A stretch of 64,000 nucleotides of DNA. Source: Minisyncoccota bacterium (lineage in GTDB: Bacteria; Patescibacteriota; Minisyncoccia; 2-02-FULL-40-12; GWA2-44-9). The stretch spans positions 201,709-265,708 of the forward strand of contig CP129474.1 of the NCBI GenBank assembly GCA_030583765.1, written 5' to 3'. Below are positions 16,167 through 59,810 of the stretch, in pieces. The position numbers and the translations under genes were made by a program. Below the pieces are notes generated by a model. The model was not told where the DNA came from. It worked only from the letters and a program-made list of their open reading frames with translations, and made no database searches. Each line of letters begins with the position of its first letter. Position 1 is the first letter of the stretch.

Positions 16167-16215
16167 AACGTTTGCTATAGTGCTAAAAGTTCTTCTCACA
16201 ACGAAACGAAAGGAA

Positions 16216-17187: not shown

Positions 17188-17234
17188 AGCACTTCCGTTC
17201 TCGCGTGCCCCCAAGTCTCATTGGGGGCACATTT

Positions 17235-31825: not shown

Positions 31826-32979
31826 AGGTGTAGCGCCTTTATCCATGCCTCACGCATACGCGCCTCATCATACAAGCGAGCCGTTGCCTTTCCCGCCTCA
31901 CTCATGTGTGCGCGAAGCTCTGGCATATCCCATAGCGCACGAATGGCTTCGCGGAGATTGAATTCATCATTGTACTTTACCATCAAACCATTCTCTCCCT
32001 GCGAGATAATTTCGCGATTGCCGCCGGCCGTGGTCGTAATCACAGGAACGCCCGCAGCCATCGCCTCAATGATCTGATGCGAGAATCCTTCATATCCTGT
32101 GTTAAGCACGAAGAGATCTGCCGCAGCGAGATACGTCGGGAGCTCTTCATGGGACTTCGCTCCGACAATAAACACCTTCTTCTCCAAACCAAGATTTCTA
32201 GCCATGGTACGAAGTACATCGCGCTCAGGACCATCACCCACGATCACTAATCTGAAAAACTGATTAAGCTCGAGAAGTTGCGGCATGATTTTGATGAGCA
32301 TGCGAAATCCCTTCCAAGGAACTAACCGGCCGACCGAAACAATAAGTGTCCCCGGGATACCGATTCGCGTACGTGCATCTTGCTGCGAGATCTCTGATGG
32401 TGAAAATGTTACAGCGTTGGGCACAATCACGATACGCTCGGAATCGTACCCCCATCCCTGCACAATAGATTGTAGGTATTGAGATGGCACAACCACCTGA
32501 GCACTACGACGCACAACCCACCGCTGTATGCGGCGAAGCATACCCGCCCAACCACCTATCTGCACACCCTGAAAATCATCAATGAGAAGATGCGTGTGGC
32601 GCTTTTGTATTGCATATTCCCATGCATAGTCTCCAGCAATACGCACCGTTACTGGAATGCGCCGCAACATGCCCGCTATATGTGCGGCAATTCCAGGCGT
32701 TTTTCCCGAAAGCGCCAAGAGGTGGGTCGCTCCTGCACTTACCCACCACACCCGAAGCGCGTAGAGGATATGGCGCACCATCCAAGGCCACCAGCGCGAT
32801 ACACGATACACCTCAATACCCTGCTCCTGCTGACCCCGCCCAAATGCCACCACGCGCACGCGTACCCCACGCTCATGAAACGCACGCGCTACCGCATGCG
32901 CAACGGTTGCTGGGCCACCTATATCAGGGGGATAAATGCCAGTTGCGATAACAAGAAGTGGTTTCTGTTCGTTACTCAT
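31822..32979 (-). CDS. GT4 glycosyltransferase
   Basis: N-terminus LLVIATGIYPPDIGGPATVAH. C-terminus YEGFSHQIIEAMAAGVPVITTTAGGNREII. Start at MSNEQ (32979). Confidence 0.75.
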   Translation of the reverse strand: MSNEQKPLLVIATGIYPPDIGGPATVAHAVARAFHERGVRVRVVAFGRGQQEQGIEVYRVSRWWPWMVRHILYALRVWWVSAGATHLLALSGKTPGIAAHIAGMLRRIPVTVRIAGDYAWEYAIQKRHTHLLIDDFQGVQIGGWAGMLRRIQRWVVRRSAQVVVPSQYLQSIVQGWGYDSERIVIVPNAVTFSPSEISQQDARTRIGIPGTLIVSVGRLVPWKGFRMLIKIMPQLLELNQFFRLVIVGDGPERDVLRTMARNLGLEKKVFIVGAKSHEELPTYLAAADLFVLNTGYEGFSHQIIEAMAAGVPVITTTAGGNREIISQGENGLMVKYNDEFNLREAIRALWDMPELRAHMSEAGKATARLYDEARMREAWIKALHL

Positions 32980-33677
32980 GAAAAAAATGACGCACGAATG
33001 ATGTGCCATATTGCCGCGACACCGTCGGCCCATTGAATTTTCTTTCCTTCTGCATACGTGCGACCTCGATACGAAATCCCCACCTCATATATACGGAGTT
33101 TTTGCTGAGCTACCCGTGCTGTAATCTCCGGCTCAATGCCAAAACGAGCCGCGCTGAGATGTGGCAGAATGCGCATGAGTGCATCGCGCGTAAAGACTTT
33201 GTATCCCGTTTCCATATCAGAAAGATTGAGCCCCGTGCACATATTTGAGAGAAATGTGAGGAAGACGTTTGCAACATAGTGAGAGAAGTAGAGCGCACGA
33301 CGCGGGAATGCAGAAATAAATCTCGAGCCGTAGACCACATCTGCATCGCCAGCAAGAATGGGCTCAAGAAGGAGCGGGTACTCTTTGGGACTATATTCTA
33401 AATCTGCATCCTGAATGAGAATGACGTCTCCAGAAGCTTTTGCAAAACCAGTGCGGACCGCGGAGCCCTTCCCCAGATTCTGCGCGTGGCGCACCGTAAC
33501 CCATCCCGGACGCACATGATGTGCAATGACCCGAGCGGTGTCATCAGTTGACGCATCGTCAACAATCACAAGCTCCTTCTCCCATTCCGGCAGGACAACT
33601 GCATCAATGGCCGCAAAAAGCTTCGGCAATGTGGCGGCCTCATTAAATACGGGAATAATAATGGAGAGCTTTTTCAT
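32976..33677 (-). CDS. GT2 polyprenol-monophosphate hexose synthase (Dpm1/GtrB-like dolichol-/undecaprenyl-phosphate mannosyl- or glucosyltransferase)
   Basis: MKKLSIIIPVFNEAATLP...VIVDDASTDDTARV...ILIQDADLEYSP is the canonical Dpm1-like GT2 catalytic core. It is short and soluble, as Dpm1-type synthases are. Confidence 0.75.
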   Translation of the reverse strand: MKKLSIIIPVFNEAATLPKLFAAIDAVVLPEWEKELVIVDDASTDDTARVIAHHVRPGWVTVRHAQNLGKGSAVRTGFAKASGDVILIQDADLEYSPKEYPLLLEPILAGDADVVYGSRFISAFPRRALYFSHYVANVFLTFLSNMCTGLNLSDMETGYKVFTRDALMRILPHLSAARFGIEPEITARVAQQKLRIYEVGISYRGRTYAEGKKIQWADGVAAIWHIIRASFFS

Positions 33678-34795
33678 GCCAAAGTATCGTACACTGCAGC
33701 CATGCGCGGGGCAATAAGGCTCCAAAGATACTCTTGAGAGACCATGCGTTGTGCTGCAGACACAACAGCATCTCGCTCAGCGCCCGATTGCGCCGCACGC
33801 ACCAGAGCGCGCGCCACAGAGGGGATATCATCGGGATCACATACGAAGCCTGTCACGCCATCGTGCACAAAGTCGCGTAGCCCCCCACGTCGCGAGGCAA
33901 CGACAGGCACGCCCGCAGCCATCGCTTCAAGAAACGCGATGCCCTGTCCTTCAGATCGAGAAGGCCGCGCGTAAACATCTGCGGCCCCTAGTTCCTGGAG
34001 CACGTCACGGTGGCTCACGGGCCCGCGCCAGACGATGCGATCATGAAGGCCGAGACTTTTTGCCAACGTTTTCAGCGCGTGGGCATCCTCTCCAGTCCCG
34101 GCCAAAACAAGACGCCACGGAAAGGAAAGTGTTGCACACGCACGAATGAGAGCATCGATGCCATTCTTTGCGACAAGACGACTTGCGGAATATATGCACA
34201 CTTCATCAGCACGCACTCCCCACGACTCACGCAATTGAGCTCGCTCTTGAGCAGAGCACGTGGGCGCTGCGTCGACTCCATTAGGAATCAACACGACCTT
34301 TGCATCATGGCGCACGTGGCGTGCATAGGTCGCAAGAGGAGAGCTAATTGCCGTCACCACATCTGCATATCGTACCGCAAGCCATCGGCCAGCCCGGACA
34401 AGAAAAGATTGCCGGCGAAAATCGGCGCCCTCTTGGAGCGTGAGGACAAGTGGCGTGCCGGAAAAGAGCCGTACCACCAACGCCGCGAGAGCTGCATATG
34501 ACGCCTGGTACGCATGGAGTACCGAAGCGTGGCGCGCCTCCCAGAGACCCACAATCGCACCGAGCACCAAAAAGAGATACTTATCAAGCCACGCGATACC
34601 AAGACCGATGCGATAGATCCGCACATTGTCGTACGTTTCTCTAGCGGGAAATGTCAGCGAATGGCGCGGCGTGAGCACCACAAAAGAACGCTCAGACATA
34701 TGGCGCATAAATGCCTCGAGGGCCAATTCCGACCCGCCAATAAGGGGTCGGAAAGCAGGGGAAAAAACGAGAATATTGCTTGCTGAATGGGTCAC
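33674..34795 (-). CDS. GT4 glycosyltransferase
   Basis: SRSEGQGIAFLEAMAAGVPVVASRRGGLRDFV motif. First gene of the translationally coupled minus-strand GT operon. Confidence 0.75.
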   Translation of the reverse strand: MTHSASNILVFSPAFRPLIGGSELALEAFMRHMSERSFVVLTPRHSLTFPARETYDNVRIYRIGLGIAWLDKYLFLVLGAIVGLWEARHASVLHAYQASYAALAALVVRLFSGTPLVLTLQEGADFRRQSFLVRAGRWLAVRYADVVTAISSPLATYARHVRHDAKVVLIPNGVDAAPTCSAQERAQLRESWGVRADEVCIYSASRLVAKNGIDALIRACATLSFPWRLVLAGTGEDAHALKTLAKSLGLHDRIVWRGPVSHRDVLQELGAADVYARPSRSEGQGIAFLEAMAAGVPVVASRRGGLRDFVHDGVTGFVCDPDDIPSVARALVRAAQSGAERDAVVSAAQRMVSQEYLWSLIAPRMAAVYDTLA

Positions 34796-34842
34796 GGGTT
34801 GGTACTATCATAGCGCGCATAGCAACGTAAAACAACGCCCTT

Positions 34843-36039
34843 ATGCCCCACGAATCCTCGGCTTTAATCCGTATTCTGTGCATCATAACCCAGTCTGATA
34901 TGGGCGGAGCACAGCGTTTCATCAGCGAACTTGTGACGCATAGCGATGCACAGCGTTTCACATTCTCTGTTGCCGCAGGTCCTGATGGCAATCACGCATT
35001 GCGCAATGCGCTCCCAGAGCGCGTTGCGTATCGCCCCATTTCGTCTCTACGTCGCGCAATTGCGCCATGGCACGATCTACGTTGCATCCGAGATATCCGT
35101 GAACACATCCTCGCGGAGAAGCCTGACATCCTGTTCCTCAACAGCTCTAAGGCGGGTATTCTTGGTGCCATAGCGGCGCGCTCATGCAGAAAAGCCCTCC
35201 CTCACATGCGCATTGTGTATCGTATTGGTGGTTGGCAATTCCGAGATCCCATCCACCCGCTTCTCCAAACGACATACCGAACGCTTGAGCGTTGGTCTGC
35301 GCGCTGGAAAGACGTCATAGTCGTTAATAGTGAATCAGATCGCGACGCTGGCATCACTCACCACATCGCGCCACGAAGGGAGCTCATAGCCATTCACAAT
35401 GGCATTGATCCCTATCCAACAACGTATACGAGAGCAGAAGCCCGTGCGCACATTGCTGAAGCAATACAAATACCGATCTCGGATACCACAACTCTCATTG
35501 GCACGATTGCGAATGCGTATCCAGCAAAGGATCTGCCAACATATATTCGTGCCGCCCTCCACTTTAATCCTCAAGCGCACTGGATCATTGTCGGAGACGG
35601 ACCGGAACGCCCCGCGCTTGAACAACTCATACGCCGCTTAGATCTACAATCCCGCGTTCACATCATAGGCCAACGGCAAGATGCTAAAATGCTCATTCCC
35701 GCATTTGACGTTTTCGTGCTTGCCTCAGTGAAAGAAGGGTTTCCGTGGGCGCTCCTTGAAGCAATGGCTGCTAAAGTCCCCAGCGTTGCAACGCGTGTTG
35801 GTGGCATTCCGGAAATTATTACCGACGGCGAAGACGGCTTACTCGTTGAGCCACAAAATCCAGCAGCACTAGCGCAGCGCATACACACGCTCGTTGCAGA
35901 AGAGCGACTCGCCCACGATATTGTCATTGCCGCCCATCAGCGGATCGTCACGCGCTTTTCGCTCCAGAGCATGATCGCCGCGTACGAGCGCCTTTTTATA
36001 ACCCTTTTGCGCGAGCAATCTCCTGCGGGATCAAAATAA
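34843..36039 (+). CDS. GT4 glycosyltransferase
   Basis: N-terminus IRILCIITQSDMGGAQRF. C-terminus SVKEGFPWALLEAMAAKVPSVATRVGGIPEII. Confidence 0.75.
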   Translation: MPHESSALIRILCIITQSDMGGAQRFISELVTHSDAQRFTFSVAAGPDGNHALRNALPERVAYRPISSLRRAIAPWHDLRCIRDIREHILAEKPDILFLNSSKAGILGAIAARSCRKALPHMRIVYRIGGWQFRDPIHPLLQTTYRTLERWSARWKDVIVVNSESDRDAGITHHIAPRRELIAIHNGIDPYPTTYTRAEARAHIAEAIQIPISDTTTLIGTIANAYPAKDLPTYIRAALHFNPQAHWIIVGDGPERPALEQLIRRLDLQSRVHIIGQRQDAKMLIPAFDVFVLASVKEGFPWALLEAMAAKVPSVATRVGGIPEIITDGEDGLLVEPQNPAALAQRIHTLVAEERLAHDIVIAAHQRIVTRFSLQSMIAAYERLFITLLREQSPAGSK

Positions 36040-37462
36040 GCGTAGAGCTGTCACGAAATACTTCCTTCCAGCGCGTGTCGCTCGCCATGCGCTCTAAAAA
36101 TGTACGAGACCAAGGAGTGAGATCCCTGTGCGACCACACAATCATTTGGATATTCCAGCGAGCACGCTCCTCCTCCCACACCGCAGCATTTTCTTGCATG
36201 GGGATATACACTGACGACGCAAAGTCGGAAGGATATGCCTCTGGCCGCCCATCTACAAATACTTTTTCTTCAGGAAGCTTCCAAATTAAAAAGCTACCAA
36301 TATCAAAATTATTAAACAGAGGGCCCTTTAATTCATGAGCCCGAATAAAATCAACTGCCGCCTGCGCACCAACGGGCACATGCACACCGAATTGTTGCGG
36401 TAGACGGGCAAGCGGGAAGAACTGCCCACTGATAACGCTGATGCCTATAAGTATAATGAGCACTCCGGAAATCCAAAAGCCTTGGCGCAGCCGCACGGGA
36501 TGCTGTTGGGCAAGTGCTCCAAGCGCCGCAATCCCCGCGAGCCCAAAAATGGCATAGTTTCGGATCATGATCTGCGCGAATATAAACGTTATCACCGCTA
36601 AGGCTACTGGCCCCACAACATGGCGCACCCGACTGCCGGCAATAAGACTATAGATACATACGCAACTGGCAAGCACAAACAGCATCACCGTAGTAATCAT
36701 CGGATACCCCCACGCTAAAAGAAAGAACGGGCCCTTATTCTCAAGCACTGAGTAGCCATATCCGGACATGATCTGTAGCGGATAGAGAGCGCCAGAAAGC
36801 CCCCACGGATTTACCAGCAGAGCAAGCGCCAGCGCGATACCAAGAGGCAACCACTGGCGAACAGACTCACGCCACAAAGGAAAAGCACGCACCACATCAC
36901 CCATCACGATACAGAGATATATAAGGGGACCCATAAAGAATGTGATGTGTGTATTCACCCATACCGCCTGCACCAAGGGGAGCGTCCAGCGCAATGAACT
37001 CCGCGGATAACGCAGGAGCACAAACAAGAACCACCCCATAAAGAGGTAGCTAAATATCTCAGGCCGAACATCGGTTCGCTCTAACATAACCCCCCATGCC
37101 ACAAGGCCTGCGAAGCCCATGAGATACGCTCCGTCTCGTCGCCAGGCACTTGCTAATGCCAGCATAAAAGCAGTGGCCAGAATCAGGGCTTTTATGGGAA
37201 TGAGCCCCGGAACGCCGTTAATGCCCGAAAGCCAATATAAAAACACCTCACCCAGCCAGTGGTGATTAAGGAATGGCTGGTCGGGATGCGTGAAGGAAAA
37301 AAGGTTCGTCGCGGGAACCGAGCGAGTTGAAGTAATAATCTCTCCAAGACGAAGATGTCGCCCGATATCTTGATTGATCGAGGTGAGTGTATGAATGCTC
37401 GAGAGCGCCATGAGCGCCCCAAGTAAAAGAATCAATATGCTATAGCGAAGCTTTGACATCAT
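35996..37462 (-). CDS. Polytopic integral membrane protein, uncharacterized family (paralog A1 of 41602..43371); candidate membrane glycosyltransferase
   Basis: About 12 predicted TM helices plus a C-terminal soluble segment. It shares motifs with the gene at 41602..43371 (GRHLRLGE/FHLRIGE, NHHWL/NHEWL, VWVNTH/FWANTH). Confidence 0.45.
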   Translation of the reverse strand: MMSKLRYSILILLLGALMALSSIHTLTSINQDIGRHLRLGEIITSTRSVPATNLFSFTHPDQPFLNHHWLGEVFLYWLSGINGVPGLIPIKALILATAFMLALASAWRRDGAYLMGFAGLVAWGVMLERTDVRPEIFSYLFMGWFLFVLLRYPRSSLRWTLPLVQAVWVNTHITFFMGPLIYLCIVMGDVVRAFPLWRESVRQWLPLGIALALALLVNPWGLSGALYPLQIMSGYGYSVLENKGPFFLLAWGYPMITTVMLFVLASCVCIYSLIAGSRVRHVVGPVALAVITFIFAQIMIRNYAIFGLAGIAALGALAQQHPVRLRQGFWISGVLIILIGISVISGQFFPLARLPQQFGVHVPVGAQAAVDFIRAHELKGPLFNNFDIGSFLIWKLPEEKVFVDGRPEAYPSDFASSVYIPMQENAAVWEEERARWNIQMIVWSHRDLTPWSRTFLERMASDTRWKEVFRDSSTLILIPQEIARAKGL

Positions 37463-39216
37463 GGTTGCGGCAATACGTCCTCGAGCGCACGCTGCAATCG
37501 CGGCGTAGTGATGCCCGCCCCTAGCGCTCGCGCATCTTCAGTGCGACCTTCTGCGTGCGCGAGCAGCGCCCGTGCAAATGTAAGCTCGTCAGGGACCGCT
37601 CGCGCCGCGTGTGTATCTAATAATACACGCGCTGCATCAGTATCCCCAAGCGCAATGTGTACAAGGGAGAGGTACCACACTTCACTCCAACGTGGGTATA
37701 CGGCTAACGCATCGGAAAGCACCGCACGCGCGTCTACAAAATAACCCGCATCATAGTACAGCGCTCCAAGGCCACGATACGCATTGAGATAATCAGGACG
37801 AGCCTGTATCGCTCGCTTCCAGAACCCCTCAGCAGCCGTGTAGTCACCTTGGCGTTGCGCGATAGCGCCCGCAAGATTCAACGCTGGAGCATGCTCCGGA
37901 GCTTTAAGTAGTACCGCGTCAATACGCGAGCGTGCATTTGCAAGGCGCTCGTTTTTGAGATCGAGATACGCCATATTCGTTTGATTCACCACGCTCTCTG
38001 GCTGTGCAGCAAATGCGCTCTGGAATAATGCTTCTTCTGAAACCCATACACCCGAACGCTGGAAAGACACAATCGCATACACCGCTATCGCCGCGATTCC
38101 CCCAACCCGCACTATACGAGGCCATTGCTCATACATGCGCATACAGACGCCAGCGGCAAGAAGTGAAAGCCCAGCAGAGGGAATATACCACAGTCGCTCT
38201 GCGAAGATCGTACCAATAGGCACAATGATATTCGCCACAACGAGAAGAGGAAAAAGAAAGAGCGCGCCCGCATATCCATACAGCGTGTTTCGATAGCGCA
38301 CGACGGCAAGGATCGCACTCAATATAATAAGGGCACCTAGCAGGCTACCAAACCACGACAGCGATGAAAAGACGCTGTATGAATAGTCGGACGAAAGCGA
38401 GAAAGGCGCCCATACCCGCGCGAAACCCTCCCACACGACGCGCAGCGCCATAGCAACCCCAGTGAGCCATGAGGGCGCATGCGCAATTGCGTTATAAACC
38501 ATAGACGCATCAGTAGAAAAAGCATACTCACCTAACACCATAATGCGAATCCCCAGAAAGAGGGCGAGCGCGGCAACGTGCCAACGCATTGCCATCGCGA
38601 TATCCCTCATACCGACCCCCCGATACCACAGCATCACCCCAAGCACCGGGAGGACTGCAACAGCAGTTTCTTTGGATAAGAGCCCTGCAAGGAACAAGAG
38701 AGCAGAAAGAAAAGATTTTCTGGAAAGTCCCGCTATGATGGCGCCTAGAAAGCCAAGTGCCATCATGAGCTCCGCGCGCCCGACGATAGAAGCGACCGCT
38801 TCTACATGTATTGGCAATAGAGCGAAAAGGAGTGCCGTCGCCCCAGCAATGCGAGGTGTAGACAGCATACGAACAAGCACAAATACTGCGGTGATCACTC
38901 CTGCATGCAGTACAAGGTTCACTACGTGAAACGAAACAGGCCCATCCCCAAAGAGCCACGCATTCAACGCGTACGAAAGAATAGTCAGGGGCCTATAGAG
39001 TCCCGTGCGCGGTTGGTATGCATGGTATGAGGTACTAAAAATGCTTCCCACGTCAGGAACGCCTCCGATCAGAGGGTTGCCGACGATGACAATGCCGTCA
39101 TCAAATACAAATGCGCCGCCGATACTCGGCGCAAAGAGCACCACGGAAAGCGCAAGGGCTGTCAGAAAGACAGCCCAGGGGGTTCGTGCTACCAATGCGC
39201 GCTCAAAAAATGCCAT
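37459..39216 (-). CDS. PMT/TMTC-like GT-C-fold membrane protein with C-terminal TPR repeats (paralog B1)
   Basis: N-terminal multi-TM region with first-loop acidic motif AFVFDDGIVIVGNPL (compare the PMT VFDEVHF DE motif). The C-terminal ~200 aa is TPR (YRGLGALYYDAGYFVDARAVLSDALAVYP...). Confidence 0.55.
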   Translation of the reverse strand: MAFFERALVARTPWAVFLTALALSVVLFAPSIGGAFVFDDGIVIVGNPLIGGVPDVGSIFSTSYHAYQPRTGLYRPLTILSYALNAWLFGDGPVSFHVVNLVLHAGVITAVFVLVRMLSTPRIAGATALLFALLPIHVEAVASIVGRAELMMALGFLGAIIAGLSRKSFLSALLFLAGLLSKETAVAVLPVLGVMLWYRGVGMRDIAMAMRWHVAALALFLGIRIMVLGEYAFSTDASMVYNAIAHAPSWLTGVAMALRVVWEGFARVWAPFSLSSDYSYSVFSSLSWFGSLLGALIILSAILAVVRYRNTLYGYAGALFLFPLLVVANIIVPIGTIFAERLWYIPSAGLSLLAAGVCMRMYEQWPRIVRVGGIAAIAVYAIVSFQRSGVWVSEEALFQSAFAAQPESVVNQTNMAYLDLKNERLANARSRIDAVLLKAPEHAPALNLAGAIAQRQGDYTAAEGFWKRAIQARPDYLNAYRGLGALYYDAGYFVDARAVLSDALAVYPRWSEVWYLSLVHIALGDTDAARVLLDTHAARAVPDELTFARALLAHAEGRTEDARALGAGITTPRLQRALEDVLPQP

Positions 39217-39219
39217 AGG

Positions 39220-39786
39220 CTAAAACGCCACGTCGACAACAATCGAACCACTACACTTTGCCTGCTTCACCACCACGTTGCCATCAATAACCTGCCCGTA
39301 ACCAACCTCCGCTCCAAGTGTATAGCGCTTCGCAGGGTTTGCCGGAAGGGCCACAGTAATGTCAGATGACCCGCTCGGAAGATTAAGTGACTCAAAAATA
39401 TTAGGGCCAATGTTGAGCCCACCCGATGGAGTTGTCTTCCACACGATGTTGCGCCCTCGACTATCAATATTCTCCCAAGAGATGCGGGCATCTCTTAACT
39501 CGTACGTATCTTTGCTCAAAAACCGGACAGACCCCTCAAGTTTGCATGATGCTGGCGCCTTGAGTCCTGTTGGTCCAAAAAATGGAGTTGTCGTTGGACG
39601 CGGTTTTTCTGAGGGAGAGGGCGAGCTACTCGGCGACGGAAGAACGCTCGGACTTCCTGAAATGCTCGGCGATGGAGACGCTTCTATGCGAGCGTCATTC
39701 CAGCGTACAACCCCCCACGCGAGAGCAAGCACAGCCCCCGCAATAACCGAACCTACAATAAGTGATTTCTGCATATAAGGCATCAT
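39220..39786 (-). CDS. Small membrane-anchored secreted protein with a Ser/Pro-rich linker (candidate glycosylation substrate)
   Basis: An N-terminal TM anchor, then SPSPSISGSPSVLPSPSSSPSPSEKPRPTTTP, then a beta-rich ~120-aa domain. Confidence 0.45.
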   Translation of the reverse strand: MMPYMQKSLIVGSVIAGAVLALAWGVVRWNDARIEASPSPSISGSPSVLPSPSSSPSPSEKPRPTTTPFFGPTGLKAPASCKLEGSVRFLSKDTYELRDARISWENIDSRGRNIVWKTTPSGGLNIGPNIFESLNLPSGSSDITVALPANPAKRYTLGAEVGYGQVIDGNVVVKQAKCSGSIVVDVAF

Positions 39787-39795
39787 AGCAAGCTC

Positions 39796-41580
39796 CTAGA
39801 GAGAGCTCAACTCCTTCTCAATGAGGGCTCGAATCTCGCTCCCCGGCGCCGCTAGGGAGAGCCCCTTTTCTAATGCCGCGAGCGCCTCCGCCCTATTCCC
39901 GATCCTTGCCTCAATGCGCCCTAAATTCAGATATCCGATAGGATGGGAGGGAAGGAGTTCAACCCACTTTTGTATCATCGTGCGGGCAAGCGCCAAATCA
40001 CCCTCTTTTGCAGCAATGCTGGCGAGTCCCTCATATGCATAGGGAAAGGCGGGGTCAATGGCAACGGCCTTTTCAAATGCAGCTCGCGCGCCATAGATAT
40101 CGTTACGGGCCAAAAGAATACTCCCGATATTATAGTGTGGCTGTGGGAAGGTATCTTCGGCAGCAACCGCTTTCCAGTAGTACTCTTCAGCGCGCGCGTA
40201 TTCACCTCGATCGTAGTAGATGTTGCCGACATTGTTGTTAATGCGCGCACTCTGTGGCTCATAGCGAAGAATGTCTAGATAGAATGCGAGCGGATCTCCC
40301 CACAGACGATTGCGCTGGATCGAAAGTATGCTGAACACGATGACAGCCACCACAAACCCTGTAGCCATGAGTGGGCGCACCCACGTAAACATATTCCGTT
40401 CCCATATACGCCATGCGGCCCACGCGCCTGCGGTAAGTGGCCCCACCATCGCAAGGTAGAGCCAATGTTCATAGATCAGCGCGTTCACGGGCGTAATGCC
40501 CGAGGTCAACGCCATGCAGGAGAAGAACCACCCCAGCGCAAAAAACAAAAGGTGCGCGCTGTTCGGGCGGCCCTCCTCAACGGTTCGCAAGCGTCGCACC
40601 AATATGACACAGAGGCCAATAAGCGCACTCACAAAAAGTACCGGGATCAGGACGGGTAGCTGCAAAATGTGCGTGTAGACCACCGCGGAACGCTCCATGT
40701 GCAATCCAAGAGGCCACAAGAACATCGATGCATATTCGGTCAGCAGCGACGCAAAGGTCATGAGTCGGACAAACACACTCTCCGTATATGGATTGCTCTG
40801 CGCAAAGAAATTAAGTGTATTTTCAAAATTTAAAACCGTAAGGCGCAATATGCCGTACACCAACGAAATGCCGAAAAACGGCCAGAGGTAGCGCGCCACC
40901 CCCACAATCGCCTGTCGCACCGATCCCACCGCAACAAACGAAAGAAAATACACTGAAGCAAGGAGGGGGAAGATAACTGCGGTCTCCCTACTTAAGAGCG
41001 CAAGCACGCTTGCCACCATGGCGCCGATATACCAGCGTCGCGCATGTGTTTCACGGGCTTTCAGAAGCATCCAGAGCGCCGCAAGCATGCCGAAAACATG
41101 GAGAGGATCTCCGCGACCGGCAACGTATGTCACCGCCTCAGTTTGGAGCGGATGCAACCCAAATATCGCCGCAACAACAAAGGGGATAAAGCGCTTCTGA
41201 AAGGCGCGCTCTAGAAGCAAGAACACAAGCACTACATTCGCAATGTGGAGTACGTTGTTCACAAGGTGATACCCAAAAGGAGCCGCACCGTGGAGCACAT
41301 AATTTATGGCGAACGTAAAGAATAAGAAGGGGCGATAATAGTTGCTCTGCAGACCAATACCGGCAAGCGTATTGTGCGAAAACCAAAACGTAATAGTGTC
41401 CCACGAGATAGAGTGCACCGCGGGATTGTTGACGATCCAATCAGTATCATCCCAAAACAAGGGATTTTGTAAGTTTGTTGCGTATACAAAAAATACCGAA
41501 ATGCAAAGACCGAGAATCATGAGCATGCGGGTGCGTTGTTGTGCGGATGATCCCAACATAGGCAAAGATAAGTATGCCAA
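39796..41580 (-). CDS. PMT/TMTC-like GT-C-fold membrane protein with C-terminal TPR repeats (paralog B2)
   Basis: First-loop motif LQNPLFWDDTDWIVNNPAV parallels B1. Multi-TM core. C-terminal TPRs (NNNVGNIYYDRGEYARAEEYYWKAVAAEDTFPQPHYNIG...). Confidence 0.55.
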   Translation of the reverse strand: MAYLSLPMLGSSAQQRTRMLMILGLCISVFFVYATNLQNPLFWDDTDWIVNNPAVHSISWDTITFWFSHNTLAGIGLQSNYYRPFLFFTFAINYVLHGAAPFGYHLVNNVLHIANVVLVFLLLERAFQKRFIPFVVAAIFGLHPLQTEAVTYVAGRGDPLHVFGMLAALWMLLKARETHARRWYIGAMVASVLALLSRETAVIFPLLASVYFLSFVAVGSVRQAIVGVARYLWPFFGISLVYGILRLTVLNFENTLNFFAQSNPYTESVFVRLMTFASLLTEYASMFLWPLGLHMERSAVVYTHILQLPVLIPVLFVSALIGLCVILVRRLRTVEEGRPNSAHLLFFALGWFFSCMALTSGITPVNALIYEHWLYLAMVGPLTAGAWAAWRIWERNMFTWVRPLMATGFVVAVIVFSILSIQRNRLWGDPLAFYLDILRYEPQSARINNNVGNIYYDRGEYARAEEYYWKAVAAEDTFPQPHYNIGSILLARNDIYGARAAFEKAVAIDPAFPYAYEGLASIAAKEGDLALARTMIQKWVELLPSHPIGYLNLGRIEARIGNRAEALAALEKGLSLAAPGSEIRALIEKELSSL

Positions 41581-41601: not shown

Positions 41602-43371
41602 CTACGGACGACCGAGCCACAGTGCGCTCTGTCCAGCGTGTGTGTGGGCCATACGACGAGCATAATCGCGCGCAGCTGTATCCCCAAGCACGTCGTAACA
41701 TTCAGCAAGCTTCCGATACGCAACTCCTCGCGCAATGCTTGAACCCGTCAGCGGCAACCATGTGTCTCGCGCAAGGTCGCATCGCCCAAGTGCTTGGAAG
41801 AACATACCCAGACGCATACGCGGCAATACCGCATCCGGTGCTCGCTCGAGCACGCGTGTATATTCGCGTAAAAGCTCTGGAATACGTGCCTCGGGAATTT
41901 TACGAAGCGTTGCTTCAATGGTGTCATTGATGTGCGTAATGGAAAGCGCATAGCGTTCTATCAGCGTGGCATGCTCTGGAATGCGTTTTACAAAAATCAT
42001 GCCGAAATTATCCCAGTAGACAAGCGCCCAGTCTGCACGCGTCGAAAGCATATATGCGAGCGATTCCCACGGGCGCACGAGCGCGCTTGTGAACTGGTAG
42101 CGTTCCAATATTTCATCTACGCGCTCTCCTTGTGCGAACGCCACAGAGTCTTGAAGTGGGCCGTCGTAGAAACATTCGCACCCGCCCCATAAGAAGACGT
42201 TACGCTCGGGGTAGTGGGCGAGCATATAATTCCCCCATGTCATCGTGTGATACATGCGAGCATCTCCGGGCACATGAGTATCTGCGAAATGTATGAGATC
42301 TCGTGGCCACACGGCATAGGGATCTCGCAACCCCGCCCCTGCACGCCATCCGAAAAAGAGAACAACGCAGATCGCGCACGCAGCACACACCCACTCCCAT
42401 CGCACGAGCACGCGCAGGTGGGTCATCGCGCGAAGAGCCATAGGCAGCAGTACGAGCCACGCAAAAGGAATGTACTTCATGGACACCCACGGCATAAGCC
42501 AAAAACCAACTGACAGACCAAGCGTTCGGAATGCACGATTCTCAGAGCGAAAAGCATACCAGAGCGCAAGCGCCCCCAACACTATATGCATCACAAAAAT
42601 AAATACGCCCTGGCTCGTGCCCATATGGGCGGTAAGTGGCATTGTCTCAAGCAGTGCCGCAAATACACCGGTTTGTCGTAATGGTTGGAGGGCATACGTA
42701 TAGATCGAAGCGCCGAGAGGATTTGCAAGCGTCGCTAAAAATCCGACGCCCAAAGAAGAAAAGAGGATAGTCTTTGTCCGAGAAGATACATGGGACAAAT
42801 TCCCCCACACCGTATCAAGGATGAACGCTAGGCCAACTCCAAGCGCGAGAATGATCGAAGCATGCGTATTCGCCCAAAAGAAAAGCGTGCCCACAAGGAG
42901 CGCGCCCCATCGCCATGATGCATGCGCAAAGAGGCGCTCCAGCACAAAGAGCATCCCCGCCAATCCTAGGTATGCAAAAAGTTGCGGGCGGGGAGTGATA
43001 AAAGGCGTCAGCGCTCCGGCAACCAAAACAAAAAGAAGCGCCGTGTGTCCCGATAGTCGCCCGCCGCGCCATGAAAGCGCAAGAACCGCCGCGCCACAAA
43101 ATGCAGAAAACCACGCCACAAGAGGCCACTCGCCTATGCGCCACACCAACGCGGCAACGGCTTGGAATAACCACTCGTGGTTCTCCCATGCCGCACCAAA
43201 GCGCGAAAAAGAAAATGATTCAGTGCGTATAAAAGATCCTTGCTGAAGTAATTCTTCGCCAATACGGAGATGGAACCACGTATCAGCATCGGGGGCCACA
43301 GGAACAAGCATGGCTATAACCAGCAATGCGCCAACAACAGAGATCACGATGCGCTGACGTAACGAGATCAT
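41602..43371 (-). CDS. Polytopic integral membrane protein, uncharacterized family (paralog A2 of 35996..37462)
   Basis: Multi-TM with the same motif set as A1, plus a C-terminal soluble region with TPR-like helices. Confidence 0.45.
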   Translation of the reverse strand: MISLRQRIVISVVGALLVIAMLVPVAPDADTWFHLRIGEELLQQGSFIRTESFSFSRFGAAWENHEWLFQAVAALVWRIGEWPLVAWFSAFCGAAVLALSWRGGRLSGHTALLFVLVAGALTPFITPRPQLFAYLGLAGMLFVLERLFAHASWRWGALLVGTLFFWANTHASIILALGVGLAFILDTVWGNLSHVSSRTKTILFSSLGVGFLATLANPLGASIYTYALQPLRQTGVFAALLETMPLTAHMGTSQGVFIFVMHIVLGALALWYAFRSENRAFRTLGLSVGFWLMPWVSMKYIPFAWLVLLPMALRAMTHLRVLVRWEWVCAACAICVVLFFGWRAGAGLRDPYAVWPRDLIHFADTHVPGDARMYHTMTWGNYMLAHYPERNVFLWGGCECFYDGPLQDSVAFAQGERVDEILERYQFTSALVRPWESLAYMLSTRADWALVYWDNFGMIFVKRIPEHATLIERYALSITHINDTIEATLRKIPEARIPELLREYTRVLERAPDAVLPRMRLGMFFQALGRCDLARDTWLPLTGSSIARGVAYRKLAECYDVLGDTAARDYARRMAHTHAGQSALWLGRP

Positions 43372-44639
43372 GATTGCGGAGCAACGCGCCAGATAGCACC
43401 AGCGGCATCGTCAGAAATATACAGCGCACCATCGGGACCAAACTTGAGATCAACGGGCCTCCCAAAGAGCTTGCCGTCACGCAACCACCCGGTAATAAAG
43501 TCACCGGAATCACTCACGTTACCTTTCGCATCCACGGCGAAGCGCACCACCTTATACCCTGTGGGCGTACTCCGATTCCATGAGCCGTGATATGCCACCA
43601 GTAATTGCCCGCCGAGTGAGCCCCAGCCCTTCGCCGGAACAAATGCAATACCCAAAGGCGCTGAATGCGCAGGAAGCTCAATCGCCGCGGGAATAGTTTT
43701 TGCACAATCAGTTTGAATATCCGTTCGCGAGAATCTCCCTGGGTTAAACTTCGTATCACGCACCCGATCACCATAACAAAACGGCCATCCATAGCTCTGC
43801 TCTGAACGAATAATGTTTACTTCGTCAGGCGGAAGATCGTCTCCCAAGTTGTCGCGACCCATATCGGTGCCCCATATTTCTTTCGTTATGGGGTGAAATG
43901 TAAAAAAGACCGTATTCCGCAAACCGCCCGCAAACTCTGCAGTATACGTGCCCTCAGGGTCCGCTTCGAGTAATGACCCGTATTTCCACGTCGCCTCTTC
44001 AACGCACACATCACACGAAGAGCCGACCGTTGCATAGAGCTTTGTCTCACTCAAAAATCCTGAAAGTTTTGGCGCTCCAGGGCCACTCACGATCTCATTT
44101 TTACGTAGCTTTGGCCCAAAGGCGATTGTGCGCGTCACGTGCCTCCCGCCAACAGGAAATGACATGATCTGCTCTCGCTTCGCAGTGTTGGTAATACTGC
44201 CCGTTGCGAGATCATAGGGATACCGCCACACACCACGCTCCTCCGCAATGTAGATAAAAGTCTTTTTTGCGTCGTTCGTATAAAACGCAATCCCGTGGGG
44301 ATTCGTAAGGCCAGCCATAAGCACCGTGCGGGCCTCAGCGCTCCCATCGCGATTTGTATCATCAAGGCGCGTGATGCGTCCTGCTTTCATCTCACTTACC
44401 ACCATGCGGCCGCGCGGATCAAACGCAATGGCGCGTGGTCCTTCAAGACCCTGCGCAAATGCGCGTGCGCCAACAGTTGGAGGAAGCGTGAGGAAATCAG
44501 CAGAGCCGTCGGCAGGAATTGGTGTCGGTTCTGGCACCCGATACCCGACCCAATAAGCGATACGCATTGGTCCAACGATAAAAATAGCGGCAATGAGCAC
44601 CGCAACAATGCCGACACCTATAAGAAGCTTTTTATGCAT
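43368..44639 (-). CDS. PQQ-dependent sugar dehydrogenase (GSDH/YliI/sorbosone dehydrogenase family beta-propeller), N-terminally membrane anchored
   Basis: N-terminal TM segment. GSDH hallmarks HSAPLGIAF, VAYHGSWNRSTPTGYKVVRF, GRPVDLKFGPDGALYISDDAAGAIWRV. Confidence 0.75.
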   Translation of the reverse strand: MHKKLLIGVGIVAVLIAAIFIVGPMRIAYWVGYRVPEPTPIPADGSADFLTLPPTVGARAFAQGLEGPRAIAFDPRGRMVVSEMKAGRITRLDDTNRDGSAEARTVLMAGLTNPHGIAFYTNDAKKTFIYIAEERGVWRYPYDLATGSITNTAKREQIMSFPVGGRHVTRTIAFGPKLRKNEIVSGPGAPKLSGFLSETKLYATVGSSCDVCVEEATWKYGSLLEADPEGTYTAEFAGGLRNTVFFTFHPITKEIWGTDMGRDNLGDDLPPDEVNIIRSEQSYGWPFCYGDRVRDTKFNPGRFSRTDIQTDCAKTIPAAIELPAHSAPLGIAFVPAKGWGSLGGQLLVAYHGSWNRSTPTGYKVVRFAVDAKGNVSDSGDFITGWLRDGKLFGRPVDLKFGPDGALYISDDAAGAIWRVAPQS

Positions 44640-44667: not shown

Positions 44668-44705
44668 GATGCAACAAAAACCAAACCCCGCCCTTTCAGG
44701 CGGGG
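44668..44705 (-). terminator. Rho-independent terminator downstream of the giant surface-protein gene
   Basis: On the minus strand: CCCCGCC-TGAAAGG-GCGGGG stem-loop followed by TTTGGTTTTTGTT, 40 nt after the stop at 44746. Confidence 0.6.
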
Positions 44706-44745
44706 TTGGCTCTTGATGAGTGCTCGTGAGAGCGCTCATTTCAGA

Positions 44746-47700: not shown

Positions 47701-48405
47701 TTCGCTCAATGTGCCCGTGCCCATAACCTTAAAGCGGAGGAACTCAACACCCTGTGCGTTCTTGGTGAGAGTTGCTGATGCTGGGTTGTTCGAAGACAAG
47801 CTGAAGTTTACCGATCCAGAAACTGGAGAGGATGACGGGCTTGCTACGCCACCGCGGGTGTATGCAGGAACCTGCAACACAGAGGAAAATTCTGCACCCT
47901 TGTTGTAAGAGTTGAATTCAGCTGTGTTGATGCAGAAGACCTTCGCAAAGAAGTTCGGGTCATCTGCGACTGCCTGCGCACCGGAGGTGTTTACCCAACG
48001 GAGAACTGCGGTGTCTTCACCAGTAACATCGATACCGTACACCTTCTGATCGCCTGCTTCACAGTTGCGGAAGAGGCCAGAGGTGCCGAATGCATCGCGG
48101 GTTGCTGGCGTGACTGACTTCACATTGGCGAAACCGCCAAGGTGACCGTACATGTTGAAGATTGCTGGGTTCAAGAACAAACGCTTGTACCCGTGCTCAT
48201 TCACAATGTACACGTCCGGATCCGAAGATCCAGCAGCGCTGATAGTGTCGCCTTCCTTAAGACCATAGTCTGACGGCTTTGCAGCCGCGAGTGCTACGCC
48301 AGAGGAAAGGACCAGCGCCATGCCCGTGAACGACAATACTGTCGCTACGGTTGTGAGACCTGCGACAACTCGCTTGAGTGTCACAAGGTTTTTTGAAGTT
48401 AACAT
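44746..48405 (-). CDS. Giant (1219 aa) secreted cell-surface protein, Thr/Ser/Gly-rich with Ig-like/beta-sandwich repeats (S-layer-like/adhesin-like)
   Basis: An N-terminal signal/TM segment (VVAGLTTVATVLSFTGMALVLSSGVALAAA) is followed by ~1150 aa of low-complexity beta-rich sequence rich in T/S/G/V/N. No enzymatic motifs and no obvious sortase or lipobox anchor. Confidence 0.7.
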   Translation of the reverse strand: MLTSKNLVTLKRVVAGLTTVATVLSFTGMALVLSSGVALAAAKPSDYGLKEGDTISAAGSSDPDVYIVNEHGYKRLFLNPAIFNMYGHLGGFANVKSVTPATRDAFGTSGLFRNCEAGDQKVYGIDVTGEDTAVLRWVNTSGAQAVADDPNFFAKVFCINTAEFNSYNKGAEFSSVLQVPAYTRGGVASPSSSPVSGSVNFSLSSNNPASATLTKNAQGVEFLRFKVMGTGTLSEVTFKRLGAGSTDDFDNLYVYEGARRLTSGKSLSSSTGEVTFANLNLSVSGTRELSLVGDLSATGGNVNYFELKGAMLASGSVGGLPVTGNTMSISGSDSGGITMNKVGSIPNPTVGQKGAQISEFKLTANTEAASVKRITMFQGGTVKPSDITNIKLKAGTNEWSGSMTSDSYLVFDLGSGFSIVKGGEQVFKVYADLGGRKDEDVNLYFENSTDILAIGDQYGFGMAATISDMDSAAEAFDVTLQGGVLTIVSSSLSSANIGTDTADTTLLEYSMTAASNIEVRKTEFTLCHDPGADGSYANAADTTNGWADLDDFKVVNKDTGVTVMGPQDGSAFTTSDSGTCEDSATGAQKTFTDTYDLVAGKTYNFKVTADIKTANSRSGTALAAGDAIQVFLDNFTDDTPDITVMKYAGTNTAVADADIVPQSDMAGPALTIQASSLTLGLGSVNSQTFVRRTSNVDAVGITFKASQASALKVTDISLTGYVSDSGVAGTFGAGTAPAPDTGITIANLVSSVALYDSENMTNPIASGVASSLSATTGKVSFNNMNWNIPAGATKTLLVRVNLGANATSASGSDYFSFDIDATTDVTALDDSSRQVNAGNADPNGGTSPTTIVTVKNSGSLTVATNTADSPQKHSVYWGQNGDVAGVWRFTAANEGYYIDTITFGEDDHGTQKTDFAQNAKNMYITYKNKAGSEITKSSNGALATASFSGFADNDRPYVAKDSSLDIILKVDYMTKAEGATSGKVWDLAFIGDHGAGVSATSIFKATGESGVTIDASDSNIVNRDLADAGRSTRIYRVFPEFALVAPTATKLSTVDPVLTFTITAKGLSDSRLFFDNTATASGSIKFDTVASGATGTASPTFTVRDEVGTIVDTGTITNASNPSVGASMTIDFSSQDVEITGGTSKTLRVYLDTITGFNTPTNTSSGVASDYFQLVLRDNEDSLIQWVDNSTNSSSDADVASTQGFLRNLPMSGYQFTAQ

Positions 48406-48802: not shown

Positions 48803-48834
48803 GCAACCATGGGCATGGTTGCTCGTTTTTTCCT
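48803..48834 (+). terminator. Orphan intrinsic terminator-like hairpin within a 640-bp noncoding region
   Basis: GCAACCATG-GGC-CATGGTTGC perfect 9-bp stem followed by TCGTTTTTTCC on the plus strand. An A-tract lies upstream, so it could act bidirectionally. Confidence 0.5.
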
Positions 48835-59805: not shown

Positions 59806-59810
59806 AACGC

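Follow-up and report, generated by a model that had tools for sequence, protein, structure and literature searches.

A 64,000-nt stretch of DNA (the window) from an uncultivated Patescibacteria bacterium encodes two adjacent membrane proteins, A and B, raising the question of which reaction they catalyze and on which acceptor. A sequence-only reading had proposed a pathway of surface-protein O-glycosylation, all of the features that it described were found where it had placed them, and the computational checks that it suggested all favoured it. We consider it reasonably probable that A and B, as bacterial GT-C glycosyltransferases of the TMTC type (CAZy GT105-like), function in lipid-donor-dependent extracytoplasmic protein O-glycosylation.

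Protein A (37459..39216, minus strand, 585 aa) is composed of a membrane domain (residues 1-392, 38041-39216) and a tetratricopeptide repeat (TPR) domain (residues 394-585, 37462-38037). Protein B (39796..41580, minus strand) is likewise composed of a membrane domain (residues 1-427, 40300-41580) and a TPR domain (residues 430-594, 39799-40293); it contains 594 aa when read from a TTG start, and the 587-aa length of its public annotation (P0001) places the annotated start probably at 41559. The two proteins can be aligned from end to end (24% identity, E=7e-25), both have 11 transmembrane helices with a cytoplasmic N-terminus, and Pfam finds TPR repeats in the C-terminal third of each, in agreement with their earlier description as ~590-aa paralogues that join an N-terminal polytopic domain to a C-terminal TPR array. 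The density of Lys and Arg is 0.27 in the inner versus 0.036 in the outer loops of A, and 0.23 versus 0.034 in B. By the positive-inside rule, the TPR domains are therefore predicted to lie outside the cell, as are the loops that carry the acidic DD motif.

This motif corresponds to the catalytic-loop motif M1 of the TMTCs. In A, FVFDDG occupies residues 36-41 in the first extracytoplasmic loop, with D39-D40 encoded at 39097..39102 (minus strand), and in B, LFWDDTDW occupies residues 41-48 in an outer-face loop, with D44-D45 encoded at 41446..41451 (minus strand). D39 and D40 are invariant across 28 A-type sequences and D44, D45 and D47 across 25 B-type sequences, which argues that the first-loop acidic pair noticed in the sequence-only reading is not a chance occurrence.

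The similarity to the TMTCs is strong and specific. A is 34% identical to human TMTC3 over 137 aa (E=2e-19), with a second segment spanning the ERxxY region, and B matches the same protein with E=2e-15. The combined A and B profile matches human TMTC4 with 99.9% probability (E=7.5e-32, 349 columns), aligning D39-D40 of A with the DD of TMTC4, while the negative controls ArnT (E=0.26) and Pmt1 (E=0.24) show no detectable similarity to this profile. Homology to the TMTCs is direct, in line with the proposed parallel in architecture. With the TMTC motif set of PMC7801869 (Table 4) as the reference, the family-invariant motifs DD, YRP, RxE, KET, DY and ERxxY of A and DD, YRP, RxD, RET, ER and EHxxY of B fall in TMTC register. 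Motif M2 (SHKSYRP) is kept only in part, which counts against the preferred reading: it lacks the His-Lys for which contacts with mannose and phosphate have been proposed. A retains a nearly complete set of the TMTC ligand-binding motifs. In B, Lys is replaced by Arg in M4, Arg by His in M7 and D-W by E-R in M5, each change being family-invariant, and since these are phosphate/metal positions, B would probably use a different donor or acceptor from A or serve as the partner subunit of a heterodimer.

In a variant of the preferred reading, compatible with it, A and B form an obligate heterodimer in the manner of Pmt1-Pmt2 or POMT1-POMT2 and only one of them is catalytic; B would be a regulatory or substrate-presenting subunit, and protein S, encoded between them, would be a third subunit and not a substrate. 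The substitutions in B are consistent with such a complex, as are the pairing of the genes (an A-type adjoins a B-type gene in 14 of 16 Patescibacteria loci, and both types occur on shared contigs in many metagenomes) and the presence of S, whose conserved folded domain has a disulfide pair, always within the same gene cassette. However, the DD(xD) loop of B is invariant, its RxD motif is kept along with many further invariant polar residues, and its family is more conserved than that of A (mean column identity of 52% versus 41%), which argues for an active enzyme; the three to four A-type copies per locus in several relatives are also better explained by several specificities than by a complex of fixed 1:1 composition. 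We regard a single active subunit in an obligate heterodimer as unlikely.

The structural models of A and B both have the GT-C fold. With Pfam, PMT_2 matches B marginally (26.5 bits, curated cutoff of 26.1), A has no GT-C match, and PMT_2 and TMTC_DUF1736 are found in 7/16 and 5/16 family members, respectively, supporting the PMT/TMTC relationship suggested beforehand. The lack of a direct match for A, and a public annotation that reads just 'tetratricopeptide repeat protein', would fit non-enzymatic TPR-bearing membrane scaffolds or transporters in which a GT-C-like fold is merely retained. This is highly improbable, given that equivalents of the TMTC catalytic and ligand-binding motifs are invariant in both families and that the TMTC similarity is concentrated exactly at these motifs; no non-glycosyltransferase family was assigned to either protein.

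TMTC1-4 (CAZy GT105) are eukaryotic ER O-mannosyltransferases of cadherins and protocadherins, for which direct enzymatic activity was still undemonstrated as of PMC7801869. They share with A and B the 11-TM GT-C domain, the non-cytoplasmic C-terminal TPR array, 34% identity across the catalytic core and, in register, DD, YRP, HP(I/L)H(T/V)EAV, GR(A)(D/E)L, KE(T/Q) and ERxxY. Besides the M2 and B-specific differences described above, A and B are bacterial, half as long and carry about 5 TPR pairs, their predicted carrier is a bacterial polyprenol (probably undecaprenol) instead of dolichol, and their candidate acceptors are not cadherin domains. TMTCs have roughly 8-10 or more TPR repeats. The PMT/POMT enzymes (GT39, including actinobacterial Pmt with Ppm1) likewise carry two adjacent acidic residues in the first outer loop, act from polyprenol-P-mannose on Ser/Thr-rich regions outside the membrane and work as pairs; the lipid donor, protein acceptor and pairing would be shared by A and B. 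They differ from A and B in their DE in place of DD, in the MIR domain of the TM7-TM8 loop, for which the TPR domain substitutes as accessory module, and in sequence, as seen with Pmt1 and with the PMT_2 model.

The operon of A and B has the order GSDH-D-B-S-A-C, with junctions of -4, 21, 9, 3 and -4 nt, and lies on the minus strand. Its first gene encodes an anchored GSDH/TrAA12-like beta-propeller (43368..44639, 423 aa; Pfam GSDH, TrAA12 and DUF7133), which is found in 10 related loci and is translationally coupled to D through a 4-nt overlap. D (41602..43371, 589 aa), directly upstream of B, and C (35996..37462, 488 aa), the last gene, with an ATGA overlap with A, are paralogous polytopic membrane proteins (E=2e-17). 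D has no Pfam match and no similarity to the A/B profile; P0389 and P0391 each combine a D-like module with a GT87 GT-C domain in one protein, and the C orthologue of locus L003 has C-terminal TPR repeats. A terminator-like hairpin and T-run (44684..44707, minus strand; 10-bp stem, 7 GC pairs) separates the operon from the gene for a 1219-aa surface protein; it is the top site of a scan whose total site count was no higher than chance, so that only its position is suggestive.

Protein S (39220..39786, minus strand, 188 aa) may be an acceptor or an accessory subunit. It is composed of an N-terminal hydrophobic membrane anchor, a Ser/Thr/Pro-rich linker (residues 37-69, 39580-39678; SPSPSISGSPSVLPSPSSSPSPSEKPRPTTTPF) that is conserved among orthologues in composition and not in sequence, and a domain of ~110 aa that contains a GPN(I/L)F motif and two Cys that are invariant; S has no match in Pfam, NCBIfam or the PDB. 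All 12 orthologues lie inside the cassette. The B-S-A sandwich emphasized by the sequence-only reading is present here but represents just one of two conserved arrangements, S following a large surface protein in 7/16 related loci. The 1219-aa protein (44746..48405, minus strand), also a candidate acceptor, has a signal/anchor sequence and a conserved N-terminal module of ~150 aa that recurs in cassette proteins with poly-Thr/TP linkers; it is 69% identical to its orthologue in locus L001 and belongs to no family in Pfam, NCBIfam or the PDB. A further candidate is the anchored LTD-domain protein (49049..50017, minus strand, 322 aa, Pfam LTD); L001 likewise has an LTD protein upstream of the big surface protein. 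Both had been described as Thr/Pro-linker proteins. This holds for the LTD protein, whose Thr/Pro repeats extend over about 100 residues within 51-158 (S/T/P-rich segments at 51-66, 73-94 and 121-158; filter, 75% S/T/P), but in the 1219-aa protein there is no more than a short Ser/Pro stretch, ASPSSSPVSGS, which falls below the filter.

Sixteen Patescibacteria loci share the cassette at 30-50% identity; it includes the A/B pair, S, the ~1200-aa surface protein, the GSDH-like propeller, N-module proteins with poly-Thr/TP (mucin-like) linkers, a Wzy_C-TPR fusion and a GT4-GT2-GT4 sub-block that adjoins it in 7 loci. The GT2 (32976..33677, minus strand, 233 aa) is a candidate polyprenol-phosphate-sugar synthase. 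Its full open reading frame is 32976-33725, but translation almost certainly begins at an ATG at 33677 that overlaps, as ATGA, the stop codon of the GT4 gene before it. It has no TM helix, matches PF00535 (E=3e-30) and, in the PDB, Pyrococcus furiosus Dol-P-Man synthase best (5mlz, 4.8e-17) and then ArnC; its NCBIfam matches to AglJ, ArnC, PpgS and PgfS (the last 1.3e-16) are each under the curated cutoff. These matches support the proposed Dpm1-like nature at family level and place the protein in the Dpm1/AglJ/ArnC/PgfS group. The gene, which had been described as lying 4 kb upstream, is downstream of A in the direction of transcription, in a separate unit, with a convergent plus-strand GT4 gene between it and the A/B operon. 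Outside Patescibacteria, a similar GT2 is present within 10 kb in about 7/64 TMTC-like loci, and this loose linkage, together with the lack of co-transcription, weakens the picture. In relatives, the first TMTC-like gene is joined in register to an additional, second GT2, and this second GT2 is absent from the window.

The locus lies within a ~48-kb glycan island with a Bac_transf phosphoglycosyltransferase, a Wzx-like flippase, the Wzy_C-TPR protein, an ABC exporter and about a dozen GTs, among them many GT4, GT8, GT9 and GT11 genes. In these surroundings, A and B might instead modify a glycan or lipid-linked oligosaccharide of the island, a cell-wall polymer or a lipoglycan, on the model of Gtr-type three-component systems, YfhO/CsbB teichoic-acid glycosylation, ArnT or mycobacterial GT-C enzymes, with the TPR domain as a scaffold docking to other envelope proteins. 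Bacterial TPR domains also act as scaffolds in polysaccharide export. A glycan-decorating GT-C fits the island just as well, GT4 genes surround the GT2, and extracytoplasmic glycan decoration by GT2 and GT-C enzymes is widespread in bacteria (PMC11127046). ArnT, AftA and ALG12 score like Pmt4 in the fold search, which therefore cannot separate protein-acting from glycan- or lipid-acting GT-Cs. The sequence similarity, however, is specific to the TMTC protein O-mannosyltransferases, with none to ArnT, and TPR repeats form the accessory domain, as in TMTC and TMEM260 (PMC10214176, PMC7801869), and not the carbohydrate-binding module typical of glycan-acting GT-Cs (PMC11127046). Ser/Thr/Pro-linker proteins are also conserved in the cassette. 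Gtr-type systems (GtrA/GtrB/GtrC; GT136, PMC11127046) resemble the locus in combining a GT2 polyprenol-P-sugar synthase with an extracytoplasmic GT-C in a glycan biosynthesis locus, but A and B are of the TMTC-type sequence family, and the island has neither a flippase gene of the GtrA, MATE or SMR type nor a gap big enough for GtrA. A glycan or lipid-linked acceptor is a serious alternative, though less likely than protein, to which homology and gene neighbourhood point.

The Wzy_C-TPR protein (1055..3328, minus strand, 757 aa; Pfam Wzy_C and TPR), an O-antigen-ligase/PglL-type fusion, is distant from A and B here but directly adjoins the cassette in 7 loci (orthologues 42-49% identical). PglL/PilO/WaaL-type enzymes differ from A and B in fold and in donor (Und-PP-oligosaccharide), and this protein possibly belongs to the same system, where it could move the Und-PP-linked glycan of the island en bloc to protein or another acceptor.

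For the preferred reading of A and B as protein O-glycosyltransferases, we infer the donor, sugar, acceptor, TPR role and A-B relation as follows. The soluble Dpm1/GtrB-like GT2 would charge polyprenol phosphate with a monosaccharide from a nucleotide sugar at the inner membrane face, and a flippase would move the lipid-linked sugar to the outer face. A and B, perhaps acting sequentially, would then attach it to surface proteins, either anchored or secreted, at the Ser/Thr hydroxyls of their Ser/Thr/Pro-rich linkers; the TPR domain may select or hold these proteins, as proposed for the eukaryotic TMTCs. Candidate acceptors would be S, the LTD protein with its TP repeats and surface proteins sharing the N-terminal module of the 1219-aa protein.

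Two-step O-glycosylation of Ser/Thr-rich regions by GT-A and GT-C enzymes is established in actinobacteria. It is already established as well in streptococci (GtrB/PgtC2, PgfS/PgfM1), where the GT-A makes Und-P-sugar and the GT-C, with an outward acidic motif, transfers the sugar to Ser/Thr-rich disordered extracytoplasmic regions of membrane-anchored proteins (PMC11092751). The pathway proposed here shares this bacterial two-step scheme, with a GT2 resembling PgfS, but the streptococcal systems belong to another phylum and their GT-Cs, of the YfhO type, lack a TPR domain, whereas the Patescibacteria cassette adds conserved S, C/D, GSDH-like and Wzy_C-TPR proteins. In bacteria, the TMTC-like family is very large and broadly distributed (38,890 clusters), and no functional study of its bacterial members is known. 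As TMTC relatives encoded in a conserved cassette with Ser/Thr/Pro-rich surface proteins, A and B are predicted to be enzymes that probably attach sugars to these proteins outside the cell.

We examined the gene context of A and B, the two TMTC-like membrane proteins with C-terminal TPR repeats that had been proposed, together with a GT2 glycosyltransferase, to form a protein O-glycosylation module. They lie within a run of six minus-strand genes, which encode, in order, a membrane-anchored GSDH/TrAA12-like β-propeller (43368-44639), the polytopic protein D (41602-43371), protein B (39796-41580), the small anchored protein S (39220-39786), protein A (37459-39216), and the polytopic protein C (35996-37462). 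Successive junctions measure -4, 21, 9, 3, and -4 nt, tight packing that most likely reflects a single operon. All of the features described in the sequence-only reading are present in the window, and A and B are paralogous across their full length (24% identity, E = 7e-25). Upstream of the operon, also on the minus strand, are genes for the 1219-aa surface protein (44746-48405) and an LTD-domain protein with ~100 residues of Thr/Pro repeats (49049-50017). Of the terminator-like hairpins in the region, the best sits 3′ of the 1219-aa gene; site counts in the promoter and terminator scan were no higher than chance. Downstream is a convergent plus-strand GT4 gene, followed by a second minus-strand unit composed of GT4 (33674-34795), GT2 (32976-33677), GT4, and further genes. 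GT2 almost certainly starts with the ATG at 33677, which overlaps the stop codon of the preceding GT4 gene as ATGA. The β-propeller is of the PQQ-sugar-dehydrogenase type, is translationally coupled to D through an ATGA, and is kept in 10 of 16 related loci; it could oxidise or bind sugars. Elsewhere in the window, the longest stretches free of ORFs of at least 150 aa are 48406-49048 (643 nt) and 58769-60725 (1957 nt), and a plus-strand 531-aa ORF (54370-55965) occupies a high-GC stretch (0.61) in which several ORFs overlap one another on both strands; residues 294-320 of this ORF form a Thr/Pro/Glu-rich linker, EATPEPTATPSPPSTPTPEPTAEPMTT.

Eisenhaber et al. 2021 (PMC7801869) provide a supplementary alignment that includes the membrane domains of human TMTCs, and these sequences served for sequence and profile comparison with the membrane domains of A and B. 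Protein A matches human TMTC3 with 34% identity over 137 residues (E = 2e-19) and in a second segment covering the ERxxY region; B matches the same protein at E = 2e-15. A combined A and B membrane-domain profile aligns with human TMTC4 over 349 columns (hhalign probability 99.9%, E = 7.5e-32), versus E values of 0.26 for ArnT and 0.24 for the Pmt1 N-terminal region, which served as controls. The TMTC matches and the negative controls place A and B specifically in the TMTC type, and not in GT39 or GT83; they are TMTC-type (GT105-like) GT-C proteins, with transferase activity predicted from sequence. Pfam searches found TPR repeats in the C-terminal thirds of both proteins. In HMM searches for PMT and TMTC families, suggested in the sequence-only reading, PMT_2 on B was the only GT-C Pfam match, and a marginal one (26.5-27.5 bits against a curated cutoff of 26.1); PMT and PMT_2 were absent from A even at E ≤ 10. 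Neither protein directly matches the Pfam family TMTC_DUF1736, which corresponds to the TM7-TM8 loop. Across the family, TMTC_DUF1736 matches 5 of 16 members (best 4e-8) and PMT_2 matches 7 of 16, and many A-type homologues carry a precomputed PF08409. The models of both membrane domains exhibit the GT-C fold, and the fold comparison for B gave 17.6 for ALG12, 17.4 for Pmt4, 17.3 for Pmt2, and 17.2 for STT3B. Searches of the PDB with the membrane domains, both single-sequence and profile HMM, returned no match, and full-length protein retrieved TPR proteins only. Unlike PMT/POMT enzymes (GT39), A and B show no match to a MIR (β-trefoil) domain between TM7 and TM8, where the loop spans only 56-59 residues, and no profile similarity to Pmt1. 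Membership in GT39 or ArnT was rejected on these grounds and on the lack of profile similarity to ArnT. Public databases annotate the family as 'tetratricopeptide repeat protein', with a single JGI label reading 'protein O-mannosyl-transferase'.

The seven TMTC motifs (M1-M7), as defined in PMC7801869, align in register with A and B and are invariant or nearly so within each bacterial family. The M1 DD pair, in the first extracytoplasmic loop (EL1), corresponds to D39-D40 in A, invariant in 28 A-type sequences, and to D44-D45 in B (with an additional D47), invariant in 25 B-type sequences. M2, also in EL1 and SHKSYRP in the TMTCs, is represented only by Y74-R75-P76 in A (TGLYRP) and Y82-R83-P84 in B (SNYYRP); the Y-R-P portion is invariant, and the Ser-His-Lys portion, whose His and Lys have been proposed to contact mannose and phosphate in TMTCs (PMC7801869), is missing from both families. 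The TMTC-conserved HPIHTEAV of the TM3-EL2 segment, which bears no motif number, reads LPIHVEAV in A and HPLQTEAV in B. M3 (RxD) is R147xE149 in A and R156xD158 in B; M4 (KE(T/Q)xxT) is K182-E183-T184 and R198-E199-T200; M5 (DW) is D277-Y278 and E296-R297; M7 (ERxxY) is E340-R341xxY344 and E371-H372xxY375, respectively; and M6 (PxxP) is kept only in part. B is thus the variant at M4, M5, and M7, and these family-invariant substitutions at putative phosphate and metal positions show only that A and B would differ functionally. [quoted passage not shown] The density of Lys plus Arg in inner versus outer loops is 0.27 versus 0.036 for A and 0.23 versus 0.034 for B, from which the positive-inside rule predicts an extracytoplasmic position for the TPR domain and for all motif loops, including the one with DD. 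The outward-facing DD loop of the original proposal is therefore upheld at the level of predicted topology.

The GT2 protein (233 aa) contains a complete GT2 domain (PF00535, E = 3e-30) with DAD and YGSRF motifs, and no TM helix is predicted in it. The absence of a helix fits soluble members of the class, among them human DPM1 and the catalytic domain of Ppm1, and it also fits an ordinary glycan-elongating GT2. The best PDB relative is the dolichol-phosphate-mannose synthase of Pyrococcus furiosus (4.8e-17), followed by ArnC, GpgS, and the GtrB-like sll0501, and the best NCBIfam models are AglJ (108 bits), ArnC, PpgS, PgfS, and Dol-P-hexose transferase, all scoring far under their equivalog cutoffs. 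The earlier description of GT2 as Dpm1-like thus stands at the family level, where polyprenol-phosphate-sugar synthases are its closest relatives, but these matches do not extend to naming the sugar. The gene belongs to a conserved GT4(-)/GT4-GT2-GT4 sub-block that adjoins the cassette, as we term the A/B pair with its conserved neighbours, in 7 related loci. Some relatives encode a second AglJ/Dpm1-like GT2 of 260 or 247 aa (locus L001, 9238-10020; locus L003, 7566-8309) that is 27-28% identical to the window GT2 and whose 3′ end, including the stop, extends into the start of the first TMTC-like gene, which is B-type; the window has no such second GT2.

The best-supported reading of the locus, and in our judgment the probable one, is a two-step extracytoplasmic protein O-glycosylation by GT2 and A/B. 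GT2 would make a polyprenol-phosphate-monosaccharide, which would be flipped across the membrane, and A and B would then move the sugar onto Ser/Thr residues of linker regions, with their TPR domains predicted to recruit the protein substrate. A and B may act one after the other, in parallel on distinct acceptors or donors, or as a heterodimer. Established bacterial examples of this mechanism class employ GT-C enzymes of other families. GT39 Pmt with Ppm1 is the actinobacterial one. The streptococcal ones are the YfhO-type PgtC2 and PgfM1, with GtrB and PgfS (PMC11092751).

The genes lie in a ~48-kb surface-glycan island (96-48405) in which all intergenic gaps are ≤150 nt. The main rival reading, that this island produces the acceptor, either a glycan or a lipid, which A and B would then decorate, strikes us as possible but less likely. 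It draws on the coding content of the island, which includes a Bac_transf phosphoglycosyltransferase (96-1058), a Wzx-like flippase (3342-4781), an ABC exporter (4763-6553), a Wzy_C-TPR protein, sugar-modifying enzymes, and about a dozen glycosyltransferases, and on the fact that glycan modification by a GT2 plus a GT-C enzyme is common (PMC11127046). The TMTC-specific homology of A and B, an accessory domain composed of TPR repeats and not a carbohydrate-binding module, and the absence of a Gtr-type flippase gene all weigh against this rival, though none is decisive. With respect to the flippase, the window system differs from the three-component Gtr-type system in that no dedicated small flippase is encoded with GT2 and the GT-C enzymes: no GtrA-like, SMR, or MATE flippase was found among the scanned window proteins, 96-48405 being without a gap >150 nt, and the only flippase or exporter candidates are the Wzx-like protein and the ABC exporter, far upstream. 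The island also encodes epimerases/RmlD, methyltransferases, an asparagine-synthase-type amidotransferase, a 2OG oxygenase, and a SIS-CBS isomerase. Its glycosyltransferases comprise GT8, GT11, a GT9-methyltransferase fusion, a double GT4, and about ten further GT4 genes. Relaxing the Pfam threshold to E ≤ 0.1 still leaves three of its proteins unmatched (14665-16128, minus, 487 aa; 9988-10965, plus, 325 aa; 16183-17214, minus, 343 aa).

Candidate acceptors for the proposed protein O-glycosylation are encoded alongside the transferases. All 12 S orthologues have a membrane anchor, a Ser/Thr/Pro-rich linker of 30-45 residues, conserved in composition and not in sequence, and a ~110-residue domain with two invariant cysteines. 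Pfam, NCBIfam, and PDB searches gave no informative family or structure match for S or the 1219-aa protein. The latter carries an N-terminal module of ~150 aa (47842-48351, minus) with the consensus LKEGD.ISAAGSSDPDVYIVN.HGYKRLFLNPAIF..YGHLGGF...FRNCE...VFCIN and two conserved cysteines, for which no known family was matched. This N-module occurs in 2-3 proteins per related locus (among them L011, 14955-16247; L028, 13728-14975; L003, 13361-14563) at 57-71% identity, above every cassette enzyme, and is the most conserved element of the loci. The smaller N-module proteins bear poly-Gly, poly-Thr, or TP mucin-like linkers before or after the module. The S family and the N-module linkers together indicate that the TMTC-type transferases are consistently co-encoded with envelope proteins bearing classic O-glycosylation-type linkers.

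Additional membrane proteins accompany A and B. The gene at 1055-3328 (minus) encodes an O-antigen-ligase/PglL-type Wzy_C membrane domain (~11 TM) with C-terminal TPR repeats. Orthologues of it (42-49% identity) directly adjoin the TMTC-like cassette in 7 Patescibacteria loci, so the cassette neighbourhood includes a further TPR-guided transferase, one that has another fold. The polytopic proteins C and D are paralogues (23% identity, E = 2e-17) that share a conserved motif after TM1, PDAD..W.HL..GE...SF...W.NHEWL, and for which no Pfam family was found. In two metagenomic proteins of 915 aa (P0389 and P0391) a GT87 GT-C domain (94-331) is followed by a fused D-like module (436-659), and in L003 the orthologue of C has TPR repeats at its C-terminus. 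C and D may be an unclassified glycosyltransferase-associated membrane family. They were rejected as further TMTC-like paralogues (hhalign E = 0.2 and 0.8) and as GT87 members, the GT87 domain and D-like module being separate regions of the fusion proteins.

The TMTC-like family is very large: a threshold of E ≤ 1e-3 gathers 38,890 representative clusters, and one of E ≤ 1e-10 still gathers 13,470. At least 536 relatives were confirmed in species-representative genomes, plus one archaeal MAG, and the groups with relatives include Patescibacteria, Acidobacteriota, Planctomycetota, Binatia, Myxococcota, Gemmatimonadota, Nitrospirota, Verrucomicrobiota, Methylomirabilota, and others. Outside Patescibacteria the TMTC-like gene mostly occurs without the other genes of the window nearby; linkage to GT2, which is found mainly in Patescibacteria, was rejected as a general trait of bacterial TMTC-like genes. 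Within Patescibacteria, 16 loci with protein identities mostly of 30-50% have co-directional cassette genes in a recurring order: big surface protein, S, (C), B, A, 1-2 N-module proteins, the GSDH-like protein, Wzy_C-TPR, and GT4/GT4-GT2-GT4. The sandwiching of S between B and A, noted originally for the window, occurs in 5 loci, but in 7 others S lies behind the big surface protein. The Yanofskybacteria locus L003 (1646-21290) contains four TMTC-like genes, three A-type and one B-type, and also encodes a 530-aa PMT_2 protein distinct from these, a TPR-bearing C-like protein, and the Wzy_C-TPR protein, a marked expansion of TPR-bearing membrane transferases.

Eukaryotic TMTCs O-mannosylate cadherins, and TMTC defects lead to brain malformations. 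The TMTCs have been treated as eukaryotic (GT105), with prokaryotic homologues mentioned merely in passing (PMC7801869, PMC8724618). In the searchable literature, no paper was found that characterises either a bacterial TMTC-type enzyme or protein O-glycosylation in Patescibacteria. From this literature and the state of annotation, A and B add a new, uncharacterised member to a known kind of enzyme, one that would work by a mechanism class already known in bacteria, and what the locus contributes beyond this is a conserved cassette from which acceptors and partners can be nominated. A more speculative reading, which we consider doubtful, is that the Patescibacteria cassette is a dedicated surface-glycoprotein assembly line lacking a characterised counterpart, in which the transferases cooperate, S is an adaptor, and the bacterial TMTC-type enzymes represent ancestral stock. 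Its parts may comprise the big surface protein, S, C/D, B, A, the linker-bearing N-module proteins, the GSDH-like protein, Wzy_C-TPR, and GT4-GT2-GT4. If this were true, TPR-guided transferases of three membrane folds (TMTC-type GT-C, Wzy_C, and the unclassified C/D) would glycosylate the main envelope proteins, and the eukaryotic cadherin O-mannosylation enzymes would have arisen from prokaryotic TMTC-type stock.

Bacteria thus encode unmistakable TMTC-type enzymes, with about one-third of catalytic-core residues identical, and the Patescibacteria cassette puts them beside proteins that could plausibly serve as acceptors and a GT2 that could plausibly be the lipid-sugar synthase. For a family of nondescript 'TPR repeat proteins' numbering tens of thousands of sequence clusters, this offers the hypothesis of TPR-guided, lipid-donor-dependent O-glycosylation of envelope proteins. 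The bacterial proteins, at ~590 aa, provide compact models for TMTC structure and mechanism, and the proposed pathway would bear on how ultrasmall, host-dependent bacteria construct their host-contact surface.
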